A stretch of DNA of 7,496 nt, taken from the IMG/VR virus record IMGVR_UViG_2660238126_000008. One strand, 5' to 3'. Made by a program: the position numbers and the translations under genes. The DNA comes from a virus (lineage: Duplodnaviria > Heunggongvirae > Uroviricota > Caudoviricetes). Position 1 is the first letter of the stretch. The number at the start of each line of letters is the position of its first letter. Positions 1-7,496 of the stretch are shown here, one piece after another. The notes under the pieces were generated by a model, which did no database searches, was not told where the DNA came from, and saw only the letters and a program-made list of their open reading frames with translations.

Positions 1-330
1 AGAGATGGCCGTCGATTTAACCCCAGTGTTTTTAAAGATACTTATCAATATGGTTATACAAGCTCAGGTCAAAATACCTGGGGTGTACAAGGCTCAGTAG
101 GTATGTCTACGGGGTGGTTAGCTAATACCAGTACAGATGGTAATCATAGCCACTCACTGTCCGGCACAGCAGCATCTGCAGGTGCACACGCGCATACTGT
201 CGGTATTGGTGCTCATACGCACTCCGTTGCGATTGGTTCACATGGACACACCATCACCGTTAACGCTGCTGGTAATGCGGAAAACACCGTCAAAAACATC
301 GCATTTAACTATATTGTGAGGCTTGCATAA
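1..330 (+). CDS. stfR: Phage side tail fiber protein, C-terminal end (5'-partial; runs off the window start)
   Basis: Frame 1 is open from base 1 to the TAA at 328-330. The translation ends ...[41 protein letters not shown]...NYIVRLA, with four HxH motifs typical of tail fiber tip domains. It is followed directly by a tail fiber assembly gene and a pin-type invertase. The symbol rests on the downstream gene order (pinR-ynaE-uspF-ompN) as in E. coli K-12 Rac, recalled from memory. Confidence 0.8.
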
Positions 331-905
331 TGGCATTCAGAATGAGTGAACAACCACGGACCATAAAAATTTATAATCTGCTGGCCGGAACTAATGAATT
401 TATTGGTGAAGGTGACGCATATATTCCGCCTCATACAGGTCTGCCAGCAAACAGTACCGATATTGCACCGCCAGATATTCCGGCAGGCTTCGTGGCTGTT
501 TTCAACAGTGATGAGGCATCGTGGCATCTCGTTGAAGATCATCGGGGAAAAACCGTCTATGACGTGGCTTCCGGCGACGCGTTATTTATTTCTGAACTCG
601 GTCCGTTACCGGAAAATGTTACCTGGTTATCGCCGGGAGGGGAATATCAGAAGTGGAACGGCACAGCCTGGGTGAAGGATACGGAAGCAGAAAAACTGTT
701 CCGGATCCGGGAGGCGGAAGAAACAAAAAACAACCTGATGCAGGTAGCCAGTGAGCATATTGCGCCGCTTCAGGATGCTGCAGATCTGGAAATTGCAACG
801 GAGGAAGAAATCTCGTTGCTGGAAGCATGGAAAAAGTATCGGGTATTGCTGAACCGTGTTGATACGTCAACTGCACAGGATATTGAATGGCCAGCACTGC
901 CGTAG
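330..905 (+). CDS. tfaR: Tail fiber assembly protein (Tfa family)
   Basis: 191-aa ORF whose ATG overlaps the upstream stop (TAATG at 328-332). The protein ends ...[17 protein letters not shown], a typical Tfa/gpG-like C-terminus, and lies immediately 3' of the tail fiber gene. Confidence 0.85.
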
Positions 906-1002
906 GGTAAAACATATAAATTCTATAATTAGATGTATCTTTCCATTTACGGCAAGGAAGGGGGCTTGGAAGACGTAAAGCATCTCACACCGAGATTATT
1001 TT

Positions 1003-1593
1003 TTATATGTCAGGTGTCTGAAGTTTTGCTTTGGCTCTTAAAATGGTTTGCCGCGAGGTTTTGAATTCCCGGGCAATGGCACTTATACTTACACCTGACT
1101 TAATTCGTTCGAATACCACCTGTTTCTGTTCTTCATTTAACACAGGTGGTCGACCAAAACGTTTCCCTGCGCCGCGGGCTCTTACTATCCCGGAATGAGT
1201 GCGTTCAAGTAAAAGGTCTCGTTCAAATTCAGCGACTGCTGAAATTACTTGCATCATCATTTTTCCTGTTGGACTGGTCAGGTCAATGCCAGCCAATGCT
1301 AAGCAATGCACTCTGATACCTGTTTCGGTCAGTTGTTCCACTGTTTTCCTGATATCCATTGCATTACAACCAAGGCGATCCAGTTTTGTCACAATCAATT
1401 GATCACCACATTTCAGGCGAGCAAGCAACCGGTTAAAACCAGGACGCTCACTGGTTGCTGCTGAGCCGCTAATGTGTTCTTCGATTATTTGCTGAGGTTT
1501 GATTTTAAAACCTGCACTTTCGATTTCCCGGCGTTGATTTTCGGTGGTCTGATCCAGCGTTGATATCCGACAGTAAGCAAAAATTCGAGACAT
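1003..1593 (-). CDS. pinR: Serine recombinase, DNA invertase family (Pin/Gin/Hin/Cin-like, 196 aa)
   Basis: N-terminal YCRISTLDQ motif with the catalytic Ser, a resolvase catalytic-domain pattern ([13 protein letters not shown]...) and a C-terminal HTH region ([20 protein letters not shown]). Convergent with tfaR, ATG at 1591-1593. Symbol from remembered K-12 PinR and gene context. Confidence 0.88.
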
Positions 1594-1909
1594 AGTGAGA
1601 CTCTATACGAAATTGGTGTTCATATCATAATGCATCTCAGAAAATAATTATGATTATTTTTGTGCATATTTGTATGTACACGTTCGAAAATAAACGAATG
1701 CGTATGCAACCCCGTAATTTTGGTGAGACCCAAAATCGATTTTGTGAAAAATGGCTTTAACTCGGTTTGTTTTTCGAGTTCCGGGCGGACTCAAGGAAGA
1801 AGAATAGTGTTGCGTGTTATTTTAACCAGATTTCAAGTTGTTTGGTCGTGGAAAAGTGGAGCAAAATGTTGTTAAAGTGGAAAAATGATAAAAAAGTAAG
1901 TTTATTATA

Positions 1910-2143
1910 TTACATTTTACCATTTAAATTTTGGTTGTCTTTAAGAACTGATATCGCTGTTTGTAATAATTCTTTGTTATCCAGCCATGATTTTTTCTTT
2001 ATGTTTCCTTCAATGTAATCAAGCAATGTTCTGGTATTGATAGGTCTTCCCTGTTTTGCTACTTCCACTACAGCATTCCCTAGGATAATTCTTACTTCAG
2101 GAAGCTGCGCAGGGAACCACTTTAGGGTGTCTTTTGATTTCAT
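1910..2143 (-). CDS. ynaE: Small Rac-prophage protein YnaE (YdfK paralogue family, 77 aa)
   Basis: The ORF-track entry 1910..2176 has an internal ATG at 2141-2143 preceded by AAGGAA about 8 nt upstream (minus strand). The product MKSKDTLKWFPAQLPEVRIILG... matches my recollection of YnaE/YdfK. The longer 88-aa start at 2176 has no RBS. Confidence 0.6.
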   Translation of the reverse strand: MKSKDTLKWFPAQLPEVRIILGNAVVEVAKQGRPINTRTLLDYIEGNIKKKSWLDNKELLQTAISVLKDNQNLNGKM

Positions 2144-2250
2144 GAAGATATTCCTTAAAATATTATTGATTTTCATTGCGATATTGTATGTCTGATTCAG
2201 GATATGTTGACTTATACATCGGTTTTGTCTGGGTTATTGGATATGCCAAT

Positions 2251-2267
2251 CCCTAATTTTATTAGGG
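2251..2267. repeat. Perfect 17-bp palindrome CCCTAAT-TTT-ATTAGGG
   Basis: Read directly from the sequence: 7-bp inverted arms around a 3-nt centre, about 110 bp upstream of the ynaE start, in an AT-rich non-coding stretch. Confidence 0.6.
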
Positions 2268-2722
2268 CATGACTAAAAATGCTGAATATGATAAGGAGAG
2301 ATGTGATTATCAGTATGCTGTTCATATAGCCTCGAATTAGTAATGTGTTATATATGATATAGTTGACAATTTTTATCTTGGGTGTTCTTAAAGTTCGTAG
2401 ATAAACATTGTCGTTTCAGGTATACAGGAATGCTAACAGGTGGCAGCAAAAATCAGGCGGTTTATGGCGCAAGCTGAAGCGGCAACTGCAAACTATCTTA
2501 TGCAGAGACTCTACACAGATTGGGTTTAAAAGTATACATAGATAACAGTTTTTATCTGAAGAAGAAAAATATCAAGGTGATATAGCCTATATGCCTATGA
2601 TGCGGAGGAATGAATGTGATGGGAGTGATGTATCTGAATAGTTGAAAAACCGCAGTCACGTCGTATGCAAGAACGTGCTGCGGTTGGTTTGACTTTGATT
2701 GAGACGTTTTGGAATTTTTTTT

Positions 2723-2775
2723 GTGGCAAAAATGGGGCAAAACGCTGCAAAAGGGGCAAAAAAGGGGCAAAAAAA
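2723..2775. repeat. Array of about five phased G-rich/A-tract units (GGGGCAAAA-like, period ~10-11 bp)
   Basis: Sequence reads gtggcaaaaa / tggggcaaaa / cgctgcaaaa / ggggcaaaaaa / ggggcaaaaaaa. A-tracts recurring at roughly one helical turn are the classic signature of intrinsically curved DNA. Confidence 0.7.
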
Positions 2776-3068
2776 GAGTGGATTATCGTAGTTTATTGTT
2801 CTCGCTGATGATGTTTAACACATTGAAAAATAAGTAAAACACTTATGAGTCAGATAGTTGTGATTTTTGCCCTTACTTGTTCAGGTTGTATTGTTCTTTC
2901 TTACTAATTTCTTGATTTTGCGACATTTAAAAGCGACTCAATTCGTTATATGGCATCAGAAGAGTATGCGTCATGCCGGAACGCCCAGCATAAGAAATCT
3001 GATATAAAAACTGTGGCGTGTATGGTACGGATTAGAGGGGAAAATGTCAGCACATTTGCGAAATGAAT

Positions 3069-3095
3069 CAAAAAGCCCGCAGCAATGTGCGGGCG
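3069..3095 (-). terminator. Rho-independent terminator downstream of uspF
   Basis: GCCCGC-(8 nt loop)-GCGGGC hairpin at 3075-3094, followed on the minus strand by a TTTTT run (plus-strand AAAAA at 3070-3074), starting 7 nt after the uspF stop. Confidence 0.6.
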
Positions 3096-3101
3096 TTAGT
3101 G

Positions 3102-3617
<516 letters not shown>

Positions 3618-3643
3618 TTAGATCAAAGGAGGAAGAATAAGCA

Positions 3644-3668
3644 GAAAAAGCCCGCCATAACAGCGGGC
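3644..3668 (-). terminator. Rho-independent terminator downstream of the ompN 3' end
   Basis: GCCCGC-(7 nt loop)-GCGGGC hairpin at 3650-3668, followed on the minus strand by TTTTT (plus AAAAA at 3645-3649), just 3' of the porin stop codon at 3677-3679. Confidence 0.65.
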
Positions 3669-3676
3669 AGGAGGAT

Positions 3677-3979
3677 TTAGAACTGATAAACCAGACCTAA
3701 AGCGACAATATCATCGGTAGAGATGCCATTGGCAGCGTAGAAACTGTCATCTTCATCCAACAGGTTGATTTTATAGTCAACATAAGTGGACATGTTTTTA
3801 TTGAAATAGTAAGTCGCGCCAACATCGGCGTATTTAACCAGATCTTTATCATCAACACCTGCCGGGTTGTCTGCACCACCGGCAGCGTGCAGGTCACGGC
3901 CTTTAGACATCAGGAAAGAGACTGCCGGACGCAGACCAAAATCAAACTGGTACTGTGCCTCATGGGGTTGGCTGAACAA
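3677..3979 (-). pseudogene. ompN: Porin (OmpC/OmpF/OmpN family) C-terminal fragment, about 95 codons; 5' three-quarters of the gene absent
   Basis: Translation ...[12 protein letters not shown]...[19 protein letters not shown]...[12 protein letters not shown]-stop, including the conserved C-terminal YQF of general porins. The minus-strand frame runs into unrelated sequence above ~3962 and hits a stop at ~4019, so no N-terminal barrel or signal peptide is present. Symbol from its position next to uspF. Confidence 0.75.
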
Positions 3980-4165
3980 TGTATCCCTGTATGGTGGTTC
4001 AGTTTTAACAAACCGTGATTATCAATCTCTGGCTGCCGGCGTTGGCTTTAACCTTAACTCATTGGGTTCATTATCTTTTGATGTCACACGATCTGATGCT
4101 CAGTTGCATAATCAGGATAAAGAAACGGGTTATAGCTACCGCGCTAACTATTCAAAACGTTTTGA
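3969..4165 (+). pseudogene. Internal fragment (~65 codons) of a fimbrial usher (chaperone-usher pathway outer-membrane protein)
   Basis: Part of ORF 3867..4211 translates ...[65 protein letters not shown], matching remembered usher motifs (NWSLYGG; xSxDxTxSxAxL; SxRxxYSKRF). The first ~33 residues of that ORF are just the antisense of the porin fragment. No start codon, signal peptide or downstream usher sequence. Confidence 0.55.
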
Positions 4166-4950
4166 ATCATATCGGCAGCCAGTTTTTCACTGTTTTCCTG
4201 CTCTTTGTTGACCAGCGGGAAATACTTGTCAGACAGCAGTTCACGACCGCAAATCACCACCAGATCGTCATCGTCCTGGTAGACCACATCGATAAGCTCA
4301 TTGACGGCATCCATCACTACGGCGTCCAGGTTGGCATATTCGCCACCTTTCCCGACTTTCACCGCGCCCGGTGTGGTTTCACCGCCCGTGGTGGTGCTGC
4401 CCATGACGTGATCCGGTGCATCCTCACGGATTTTCTGCAGCCAGCCTTTGTTCACATCCTGCAGCAGCGGGTTTTCGCTACGGTTGGAGGTTTTCGCACG
4501 CTTCACGCCGTTAAAGCCGATCATGATGCGGTCCAGTGCCTGACGTTTCACGATGGCGTTACGGATACGCACCTGGAAATCCTGAAACTTCGCCCACAGG
4601 TCCAGCTTCGCGTAGGTCAGCACCGTGTCAAAGTTGGTCTGTTCGCATTTGTATTCCACATCGACCATCAGCGTCGGATCGACAGGTTCTCGCTCTTTCG
4701 CGGTGGTATCAGTGGTTCCGGCAATGGTGCTGCCAACACCCAGCCCCAGCAACTGACCAGACTGCTCAGTCACTGGCGTGACGTTAATCAGCGTCAGGAA
4801 AGCGGCGGACTGCTGGATCTGGTCTTCCAGCGTCTGCTGCACGGACGGCTCTACGGTGAACTTGCTGGACAGTTCTTCAACTGCCACACCGTTCAGACGC
4901 GCCAGCTGCTGCAGGTAAGCGTTAAAAGCAAAGCGGGTATTCTTCTTCAT
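4144..4950 (-). pseudogene. P2-family major capsid protein (gpN-like), N-terminal ~262 residues; C-terminal third missing
   Basis: Translation MKKNTRFAFNAYL...FTVEPSV...LDLWAKFQDFQVRIRNAIVKRQALDRIMIGFNGVKRA...KVGKGGEYANLDAVVMDA...KYFPLVNKEQENSEKLAADMI closely parallels my recollection of P2 gpN. After ...AADMI it reads QNVLNS-stop, which is the antisense of the usher fragment. ATG at 4948-4950 with GGAG upstream. Confidence 0.8.
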
Positions 4951-4966
4951 CGGGTTTTGTGCTCCA

Positions 4967-5800
4967 TCAGCAATTGGTCAGAGTGTCAGCGGGGGCGTTA
5001 CCGCCTGTTGCACGCTGGCGGTAGTCCTGGCGGCTGTCTTCATGACTCAGCTTATTCACCAGTTCGTTAAAGGCGGTCTGCTGTGCCTGCAGGGCAGTCT
5101 CCAGCTCAGACAGACGTTCTTCCTGCTCAGACAGGGATTTTTCGGTGCGTGCGCTCAGGTTTTGCTGCTCAGTGGCGACCAGCTCCACGGCCTTATGCAC
5201 ATCAGAGAACCGGGCATCGTCGGACTGCTCTTTTTTGGTAAACAGCGCCGTGACACGGGCAAACAGGGACGGTTTGTCCTCCTGGATTTCTTCCAGTTCG
5301 ATCACTGTTTCCTCTGCGGCGGTAAAGAGATTGGCGGGATTCTGCTTGCGGTTTGCCAGCGGGTTATGGGCTGCACTGGCGCTGAATGTCAGCATTTCCG
5401 TACCCAAACTGGCAGGGTCATCAGTGGCAGCCAGGCCGACCAGGTAGGCTTTGCCCGTATCAGCGAACTTCGGGCTGACTTCCATAGAGGTGAATAATTT
5501 CTGGCCTTTTTTCACCAATTCCACCAGGGACTCCGTTGGCTCAACGTCGGCATACAGCGCCATCTTGCCTGCCAGCGGGCCTTCCGTGATTTCTTCAGCA
5601 AACAGCGCCGTCACCTTGCCGTAACGGTTAAAGGTGCTGTCCGGGAGATAAGACTTGATGTGCTCAAGGTTAATCAGCGCGGTATACACCGCCGGGTTGT
5701 AGCTGGCTGCCATCTGTTCCAGCCATTCACGCTGGATTTCGCGTCCGTCGGTGGTGGCACCTTCCACCCCGATGCGAAAACGCTTTGCTTTCACTGTCAT
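4967..5800 (-). CDS. P2-family capsid scaffolding protein (gpO-like), 277 aa, apparently full length
   Basis: Translation ...FRIGVEGATTDGREI...INLEH...GKAYLVGLAATDDPASLGTEMLTF...SDDARFSDVHKAV...ATGGNAPADTLTNC parallels remembered P2 gpO. ATG at 5798-5800 with GGAG about 11 nt upstream. It sits directly upstream of the capsid gene (16-bp gap), as in the P2 O-N arrangement. Confidence 0.85.
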   Translation of the reverse strand: MTVKAKRFRIGVEGATTDGREIQREWLEQMAASYNPAVYTALINLEHIKSYLPDSTFNRYGKVTALFAEEITEGPLAGKMALYADVEPTESLVELVKKGQKLFTSMEVSPKFADTGKAYLVGLAATDDPASLGTEMLTFSASAAHNPLANRKQNPANLFTAAEETVIELEEIQEDKPSLFARVTALFTKKEQSDDARFSDVHKAVELVATEQQNLSARTEKSLSEQEERLSELETALQAQQTAFNELVNKLSHEDSRQDYRQRATGGNAPADTLTNC

Positions 5801-5878
5801 GAGCCGTGCTCCGTTAGAAATAACTTACTGGAGCCTTATGGTTGCGGTGATGGGGGCAGTGAAACAATGCGCGGTATT

Positions 5879-5896
5879 TGTACCGACAACCACACA
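5879..5896. promoter_or_regulatory. TGT-N12-ACA dyad, candidate Ogr/Delta-type late-activator site in the divergent O/P intergenic region
   Basis: tgtACCGACAACCACaca read directly from the sequence, centred about 87 bp upstream of the scaffold-gene ATG. In P2-family phages late promoters carry this dyad near -55 relative to the transcription start. A possible weak -10 (CATAAG, minus strand, ~5834-5839) lies in between. The transcription start is not known. Confidence 0.4.
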
Positions 5897-5942
5897 AACC
5901 GCAGGCGGGGAAAGCCTTCATTCAAGGCTGTAGGTTTGTGCC

Positions 5943-7290
5943 ATGAACACCACACTGACACCCGCAGATCTCGATCCCCGTCGGCAGGCCATGCTGCTGT
6001 ACTTTCAGGGATACCGCGTAGCCCGCATTGCTGAAATGCTGGGCGAGAAAGTTGCAACCGTTCACAGCTGGAAGAAACGCGACAAGTGGGGTGACTATGG
6101 GCCGCTGGATCAGATGCAGCTCACCACCGCCGCACGTTACTGCCAGCTCATTATGAAGGAGCACAAAGAAGGGAAAGATTTCAAAGAAATTGACCTGCTG
6201 GCGCGCCAGTCGGAGCGCCACGCGCGGATCGGCAAGTTTAACAATGGCGGCAACGAAGCCGACTTAAACCCTAACGTCGCCAACCGCAACAAAGGCCCGC
6301 GCCGTCAGCCGGAAAAGAATGTTTTCACCGATGAACAGATAGAGAAACTGGAAGAAATCTTCCATTCCTCCATGTTCAACTACCAGCGCCACTGGTGGGA
6401 AGCCGGAAAAACCAACCGCATCCGCAACCTGCTGAAGTCACGCCAGATCGGCGCGACCTTTTACTTTGCCCGTGAAGCCCTGATTGACGCCCTGCTTACC
6501 GGACGTAACCAGATTTTCCTTTCTGCCAGTAAGGCACAGGCTCACGTCTTTAAGCAGTACATCATCGACTTCGCCAAAGAAGTCGAGGTGGAGCTGAAAG
6601 GCGATCCGATGGTGCTTCCTAACGGGGCCACGCTTTACTTCCTCGGCACCAATGCCCGCACGGCGCAGAGTTACCACGGCAACCTGTATCTGGATGAATA
6701 TTTCTGGATACCGAAATTCCAGGAGTTGCGCAAAGTGGCTTCCGGTATGGCTATTCACAAGAAATGGCGACAAACCTATTTTTCCACGCCATCCAGCCTG
6801 ACCCACAGTGCTTATCCGTTCTGGTCCGGTGCGCTGTTCAACCGTGGACGCAACAAAGCTGACAAGGTGGACATCGACCTGTCCCACAGCAATCTGGCCC
6901 CCGGCCTGCTGTGCGCAGACGGGCAATACCGCCAGATAGTCACCGTGGAAGATGCGGTGCGCGGCGGCTGTAACCTGTTCGACCTCGACCAGCTGCGCAT
7001 GGAGTACAGCCCGGACGAATACCAGAACCTGCTGATGTGCGAGTTCGTGGACGATCTCGCGTCCGTGTTCCCGCTCAGCGAACTGCAGGCGTGCATGGTG
7101 GACAGCTGGGAAGTCTGGACCGACTTTCATGCACTGGCCCTGCGCCCGTTTGGCTGGCGCGAAGTGTGGATCGGTTATGACCCGGCAAAAGGTACGCAGA
7201 ACGGCGACAGTGCCGGATGCGTGGTGGTGGCTCCGCCAGCCGTGCCGGGTGGTAAGTTCCGCATTCTTGAGCGTCACCAGTGGCGCGNGA
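5943..7290 (+). CDS. P2-family terminase large (ATPase) subunit (gpP-like), 3'-truncated at the N cluster
   Basis: About 449 codons from the ATG at 5943-5945, with a Walker-A-like SRQIGATFYF and a Walker-B-like NLYLDEYFWIP. Divergent from the scaffold gene as P is from O in P2. The reading frame stays open to the window end only because of N bases; recognisable terminase sequence stops near ...ILERHQWR (~7287). Confidence 0.82.
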
Positions 7291-7299
7291 TGNNCNNCN
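7288..7299. other. Cluster of six ambiguous bases (N at 7288, 7293, 7294, 7296, 7297, 7299) at the terminase/purL breakpoint
   Basis: Read directly from the sequence (gcgngatgnncnncnt). Two further N bases occur at 7473 and 7477. Confidence 0.95.
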
Positions 7300-7301
7300 T
7301 C

Positions 7302-7496
7302 ACGCACTTCCACGCGCCCTTCACCATGAGAGACAGCAATCGGCATTTGCGAGCCCACCATCCCCTGCAACAGCAGCGACGGGCTTTGGGTCACTTCAAC
7401 CAGGCTGAAACGCGCTTCAAAGCGATCGGAGGTATTGCGCACAAAACGTGGCCACAACTCACTACCTGGGATNATTNGAGAATCGCCGGCAGGTGA
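7302..7496 (-). CDS. purL: Internal fragment of phosphoribosylformylglycinamidine synthase (PurL), glutaminase-domain region; partial at both ends
   Basis: Minus-strand translation from the window end reads ...[57 protein letters not shown], with the amidotransferase HGEGR motif, matching my recollection of E. coli PurL near its C-terminus. The M of ORF 6438..7457 is a TTG codon inside this fragment. Below ~7300 that ORF is just the antisense of the terminase gene. Confidence 0.6.

Follow-up and report, generated by a model that had tools for sequence, protein, structure and literature searches.

On the plus strand of the window, by which we mean the whole stretch of 7,496 nucleotides that was analysed, an open reading frame begins at position 5943 that encodes a large terminase of the P2 gpP type, with the Pfam domains Terminase_5 and Terminase_6N, and whose translation up to position 7286 ends with ...GGKFRILERHQWR. 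The nuclease domain of this protein (Terminase_6C in Pfam) is represented by just profile positions 1–35 of 155, so that the gene is cut in mid-domain. Up to position 7292 the sequence is 99.97% identical to prophage terminases, and when the region 6800–7496 was compared by megablast with 5,426 complete Escherichia coli genomes, every match to a terminase stopped at 7292. A few nucleotides further on, the minus strand takes over: positions 7302–7472 encode an internal fragment of the glutamine amidotransferase domain of PurL comprising 57 codons, which matches positions 117–168 of the 260 positions of the Pfam profile GATase_5 (E = 2.7e-13). Base-for-base identity to purL from E. coli strain 503025 extends over positions 7300–7472, while bases that are compatible with purL reach back to 7277, and the purL match covers 7277–7472 in every one of the complete E. 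coli genomes. The first-pass annotation of this DNA had described a switch from the terminase gene to an antisense purL segment across a cluster of N bases, with a minus-strand segment of the PurL glutaminase domain starting near 7302. This description proved accurate within a few bases, with terminase sequence running to about 7292 and purL sequence occupying 7300–7472, and the assignment to the glutaminase domain is borne out by the Pfam match.

The window contains eight N in total. Two of them are found at positions 7473 and 7477, and the remaining six (7288, 7293, 7294, 7296, 7297 and 7299) lie within 12 nt between terminase and purL, just as had been counted before. A three-way alignment of the terminase reference (CCAGTGGCGCGGGATGGACTTCCG), the window (CCAGTGGCGCGNGATGNNCNNCNT) and the purL strand (CCAGTGCCGCCAGATGCGCCGCAT) revealed that the two references agree at 15 out of 24 positions in the zone from 7277 to 7300 (binomial p = 1e-4). 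At the first two mismatches (7283 and 7287) the window carries the terminase bases, and from 7300 onwards it carries those of purL. In between, at 7288–7299, each of the six positions at which the references are discordant is an N and each of the six concordant positions is a called base, which is one split in 924. The distribution of N at this join is thus beyond chance. When the proposal was followed to check whether the unmasked bases continue the terminase or purL, it turned out that they fit both, and that N stands exactly where the two differ. This coincidence of N with the discordant positions implies that the data included the natural continuation of each of the two genes. The strain A7 prophage has the terminase gene in its intact form, which extends for a further 417 nt and is succeeded by the portal gene; past the join, the terminase would continue naturally as ...GGGATGGACTTCCGCGCC, followed by the portal gene, and the intact sequence running from terminase into portal reads ...GGCGCGGGATGGACTTCCGCGCC. 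The natural continuation of the purL strand is ...GCCGCCAGATGCGCCGCATCACG. As both continuations were present in the data, the sequenced strain most likely possesses an intact terminase with the portal gene after it and, elsewhere on the chromosome, an intact purL gene.

The truncated terminase is part of a block of 3.1 kb (4166–7292) with 99.97% identity to the strain A7 prophage and 97–99.97% identity to known P2-like prophages. It comprises the gpN capsid gene without its last 274 nt (minus strand, called as an open reading frame at 4144–4950), the gpO scaffold gene (minus strand, 4967–5800) and the gpP terminase ATPase gene without its last 417 nt (plus strand, 5943–7292). The gene order N-O / P-Q is that of the strain A7 prophage, and the block shares order and orientation with the intact P2-family module (Q-P / O-N-M), in which capsid and scaffold genes lie on one strand and the terminase ATPase gene is divergent. 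Whereas the module is intact in the relatives and all of them have a portal gene after the terminase, the block in the window lacks the portal gene as well as the 3′ end of the capsid gene and is truncated inside genes at both ends. A phage gene that abuts a host gene could suggest a junction formed by prophage integration or excision, with purL serving as the attachment site, or a capture of host DNA similar to that in specialised transduction. We consider this the least probable of all explanations, so improbable that it can practically be set aside. The phage side stops inside the terminase gene, 417 nt before the stop codon, at a place where there is neither an att site nor an integrase gene, and the other end of the block lies inside the capsid gene, 274 nt before the stop codon, where it abuts a fimbrial usher fragment of 210 nt. 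With both ends of the phage block falling within structural genes, an att junction of a prophage is excluded. Nor is the flank on the host side a piece of normal chromosome, since about 185 nt of purL are succeeded at 7473–7477 by tssA, and purL was never located next to this prophage in any of the 5,426 complete E. coli genomes.

The origin of the window sheds light on its composition. It is the reverse complement of the GenBank draft contig CCBV01000312.1 (GCA_000936365.1, E. coli, 11,245 nt), with an offset of 2 nt; a literature search for GCA_000936365.1 gave no match. BLAST comparison with reference sequences resolved the contig into eight E. coli pieces that stem from unlinked loci and are connected by seven joins, and the source loci account for all bases of the contig without any filler DNA. 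Five of these source loci and four false joins make up the mosaic of the window (1–7496). In the numbering of the window, the first piece spans -1 to 3958 and is identical (100% over 3958 nt) to many complete genomes. Within the window, at 1–3958, it carries the right end of the Rac prophage with the 3′ end of a tail fibre gene, tfaR, pinR, ydfK and ynaM, followed by uspF and the end of ompN, of which the last 282 nt are present as a 3′ fragment on the minus strand (3677–3958) that is cut at 3958. This piece is a genuine contiguous E. coli stretch with a normal Rac right end and nothing unusual about it; pinR encodes an invertase. It is followed on the plus strand by an internal fragment of a yqiG-type fimbrial usher gene (3959–4168, 210 nt) that is 100% identical to the usher reference. 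A gapped alignment with 94.8% identity seemed to extend the usher match to 4207; this extension is spurious, and the true piece is 3959–4168. The block with the phage genes N, O and P (4166–7292) comes third and the minus-strand purL fragment fourth (about 185 nt from the glutaminase domain; 7277–7472, identical at 7300–7472). The fifth piece is a plus-strand fragment of the type VI secretion gene tssA (about 490 nt, 7474–7964), only the beginning of which is included in the window. The part at 7474–7496 is a match of 23 nt that is weak when taken alone (E = 0.3) and is supported by the match obtained with the full contig (491 nt at 99.4% identity).

Beyond the end of the window, and again in its numbering, BLAST of the source contig identified rbfA-truB-rpsO-pnp from 7968 to about 10860, wcaE at about 10855–11086 and yrbG at 11085–11243. 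The best matches of the tssA fragment are located on large E. coli plasmids (e.g., pSTEC299_1) and not on chromosomes, and for this reason the contig appears to mix chromosomal, prophage and probably also plasmid DNA. In complete genomes, the source loci lie 0.1–3.7 Mb apart: in CP025892, purL and yqiG are found at 2.71 and 3.20 Mb, respectively; in CP025856, Rac/ompN and purL are found at 0.62 and 4.28 Mb; and in CP025916, yqiG and rbfA-pnp are found at 3.04 and 2.91 Mb. The two sides of the join between terminase and purL likewise map on their own and with near-100% identity, and the loci concerned are not neighbours in finished genomes.

The joins themselves are of different kinds. According to a three-way alignment, ompN and yqiG meet bluntly at 3958/3959, with no common base and no N. 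The overlap of two alignments with 100% identity places the transition from yqiG to the P2 capsid gene at 4166–4168, where three bases (ATC) are common to both sources and where there is likewise no N. Between purL and tssA (7473–7477) the two N at 7473 and 7477 both mark positions at which the sources differ. N are also present at the three joins beyond the window, i.e., between tssA and rbfA (7965–7967), between pnp and wcaE (10845–10854, six N) and between wcaE and yrbG (11087). The six N between pnp and wcaE form a regular pattern, NN..NN..NN, and are accompanied by a deletion of 1 nt relative to wcaE. In one of two possible alignments of this join, one N falls on a concordant base, and a simple hand-over from left to right is not seen there. 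Taken over the whole of CCBV01000312.1, 17 N are grouped in five clusters, each of which is situated at a breakpoint (chance about 3e-9). With a single exception, the N stand at positions of disagreement between the left and right sources (16/17), while the called bases interleaved with them mostly coincide with positions of agreement (11/14; Fisher p = 9e-5). All genes that lie at the breaks are cut in mid-domain.

At none of the joins did we find the end of a mobile element, an IS element, an inverted repeat, an att site, an integrase gene or a target duplication. Rearrangement by an IS element or a transposon was considered as a possible cause and dismissed, as the bases of the window are fully covered by the five source loci and no extra DNA is left over. 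Co-ligation at restriction sites was likewise discarded. By eye, we noticed a GATC motif in purL near 7470 and, immediately ahead of 3959, a GAATTC motif in the usher reference; neither is placed as a ligated cut site would be.

None of the junctions was encountered elsewhere. We asked whether any place in the 5,426 complete E. coli genomes covers at least 80% of the region 6800–7496, of the entire window or of the remaining contig; none of the genomes has one (0/5,426), and the best single place in these genomes accounted for no more than 53% of the window and no more than 76% of the rest of the contig. A search pattern for the join between terminase and purL, with wildcards at the N, was run against GTDB representative genomes, JGI metagenomes and IMG/VR and did not match anywhere, and the same result was obtained in these three collections with a pattern for the join between ompN and yqiG. 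In the INPHARED phages and the PLSDB plasmids, the separate pieces found matches and the joins never did. An exact look-up of the chimeric capsid protein of 268 amino acids returned one contig from one sample. The first-pass annotation had suggested that the N at the breakpoint are typical of a contig join, a low-coverage scaffold or a collapsed repeat. A join, and a false one, is supported by the absence of the junction from 5,426 genomes and by the cuts in mid-domain; the collapsed repeat has to be abandoned, as the two sources share 15 of 24 bases and nothing more.

Could the joins be real nevertheless? A region of the chromosome might have been shattered in vivo and stitched together again by illegitimate, microhomology-mediated end joining, with the N representing low-quality calls or a mixture of rearranged and unrearranged cells. 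The short stretches of microhomology at 7277–7300 (15/24) and at 4166–4168 (ATC) do resemble junctions formed by illegitimate recombination, and a mixed population could in principle give rise to ambiguous calls. Still, we regard such a rearrangement as very improbable. It would have required that eight fragments from all over the chromosome plus a plasmid-type tssA locus were joined within 11 kb, and it would have interrupted ompN, yqiG, purL, pnp, rbfA, wcaE and yrbG in addition to the phage capsid and terminase genes. None of the joins bears the mobile-element or att features looked for above, and no other genome or metagenome that we searched has any of the junctions. Furthermore, the placement of N exactly at discordant positions implies that both intact continuations were contained in the data. 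There is equally little to recommend the related notion that a subpopulation of the isolate carries a re-stitched molecule composed of chromosome, P2-like prophage and a T6SS-bearing plasmid, so that the joins would be real and the N would reflect mixed copies.

A physical chimera formed in vitro and then assembled faithfully deserves more attention. Such a molecule could have been produced by co-ligation during library construction, by template switching in the PCR or by whole-genome (multiple displacement) amplification, and N would then have been introduced wherever reads of the intact loci extend beyond such a chimeric read. The sequence common to both sides of a join amounts to 0 nt, 3 nt, about 5 nt or an imperfect 15/24; a short or absent overlap is typical of ligation or template switching and is too short for an ordinary overlap or k-mer assembler. 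In size, the small pieces of 160–490 nt correspond to individual reads or to fragments of a library, and two of the joins are clean and do not contain N. In their exact common sequence of 0–6 nt and in the small size of the fragments, the joins indeed resemble those of known in vitro chimeras. In spite of these similarities we judge this origin to be unlikely, albeit clearly less so than a rearrangement in the living cell. Seven events in a contig of 11 kb would demand an extraordinarily chimeric library, and where coverage is normal, one chimeric read alone would seldom determine the consensus. Multiple displacement amplification mostly generates inverted joins between template segments that are near each other, with short microhomology; reportedly, the joined segments lie close together on the template. 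Short microhomology is observed at some of the joins of CCBV01000312.1, but the segments are 0.1–3.7 Mb apart, unlike what is mostly reported for displacement-amplification chimeras. The contig further differs from in vitro chimeras in drawing its pieces from the entire chromosome and not from inverted neighbours, in combining several events in succession within one molecule, and in its ambiguity codes at the joins, which speak for a consensus step.

The explanation that agrees best with all of these observations is that the switch from terminase to purL is a misjoin, which probably arose during assembly, scaffolding, gap closing or polishing of the draft genome. We hold this with considerable confidence on the basis of the sequence comparisons; the probable origin is a computational step, and not a molecule in the library. 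The ends of two unlinked sequences, the P2-like prophage and purL, may have been overlaid across a short and imperfect overlap of 24 nt with 15 matching positions. In the consensus, the terminase would then have supplied the bases of the left part and purL those of the right part, and disagreements in between would have been called as N. This kind of overlap-and-consensus event would have been repeated at least four more times in CCBV01000312.1, in addition to two further joins without N. The latter two (3958/3959 and 4166–4168), with almost no common sequence and no N, are not explained by a single uniform overlap-and-consensus process; they could reflect chimeric reads or the action of a scaffolder.

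The switch is not a biological feature. It belongs to an ordinary kind of artefact, namely draft contigs that are chimeric and carry ambiguity calls in columns of conflict. Like other chimeric draft contigs, CCBV01000312.1 is composed of perfectly matching blocks from unlinked loci, its genes are cut in mid-domain, its joins are unique to the record, and its ambiguous bases mark a conflict between two populations of reads. It differs from them in its unusual density, with seven joins in 11 kb, in its alternation of blocks of 3–4 kb with read-sized blocks of 160–490 nt, and in the sequence common to both sides of the joins, which is far below the usual overlap or k-mer length. A consensus rule that treats a conflict as ambiguous, as implemented in assemblers and polishers, would yield N at differing columns. 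At 7288–7299, the differing columns are all N and the agreeing columns are all called, in line with consensus conflict calls made as N or IUPAC codes. Normally, however, such calls mark mixtures of strains or copies of repeats that are nearly identical, whereas the two sources at the join between terminase and purL are unrelated and agree in 15 of 24 columns.

The value of these findings is one of data hygiene only: they constitute a quality warning about a public contig, CCBV01000312.1, in which eight unlinked fragments follow one another. The earlier advice that nothing downstream of the breakpoint should be taken as linked to the phage genes is well founded and can be extended to the other side, because the phage block is just as unlinked to the sequence upstream of 4166. 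In other words, the P2 block at 4166–7292 has no link to its apparent neighbours on either side, be it Rac, ompN and yqiG upstream or purL and tssA downstream. Anyone who concluded from the window that the phage genes reside beside purL, ompN, an usher gene or a T6SS gene would be wrong, and the same applies to conclusions about prophage borders, cargo genes or integration sites. The occurrence of N exactly where two perfect reference matches disagree can be used as an automatic filter for joins of this kind.

Two chimeric proteins have entered the databases as a consequence of the joins. One is a "terminase" of 517 amino acids (5943–7496, plus strand), the last 70 residues of which are antisense purL read through the N, and the other is the capsid protein of 268 amino acids (4144–4950, minus strand), whose end residues are derived from antisense usher sequence. 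The ends of the window coincide with the ends of called genes.
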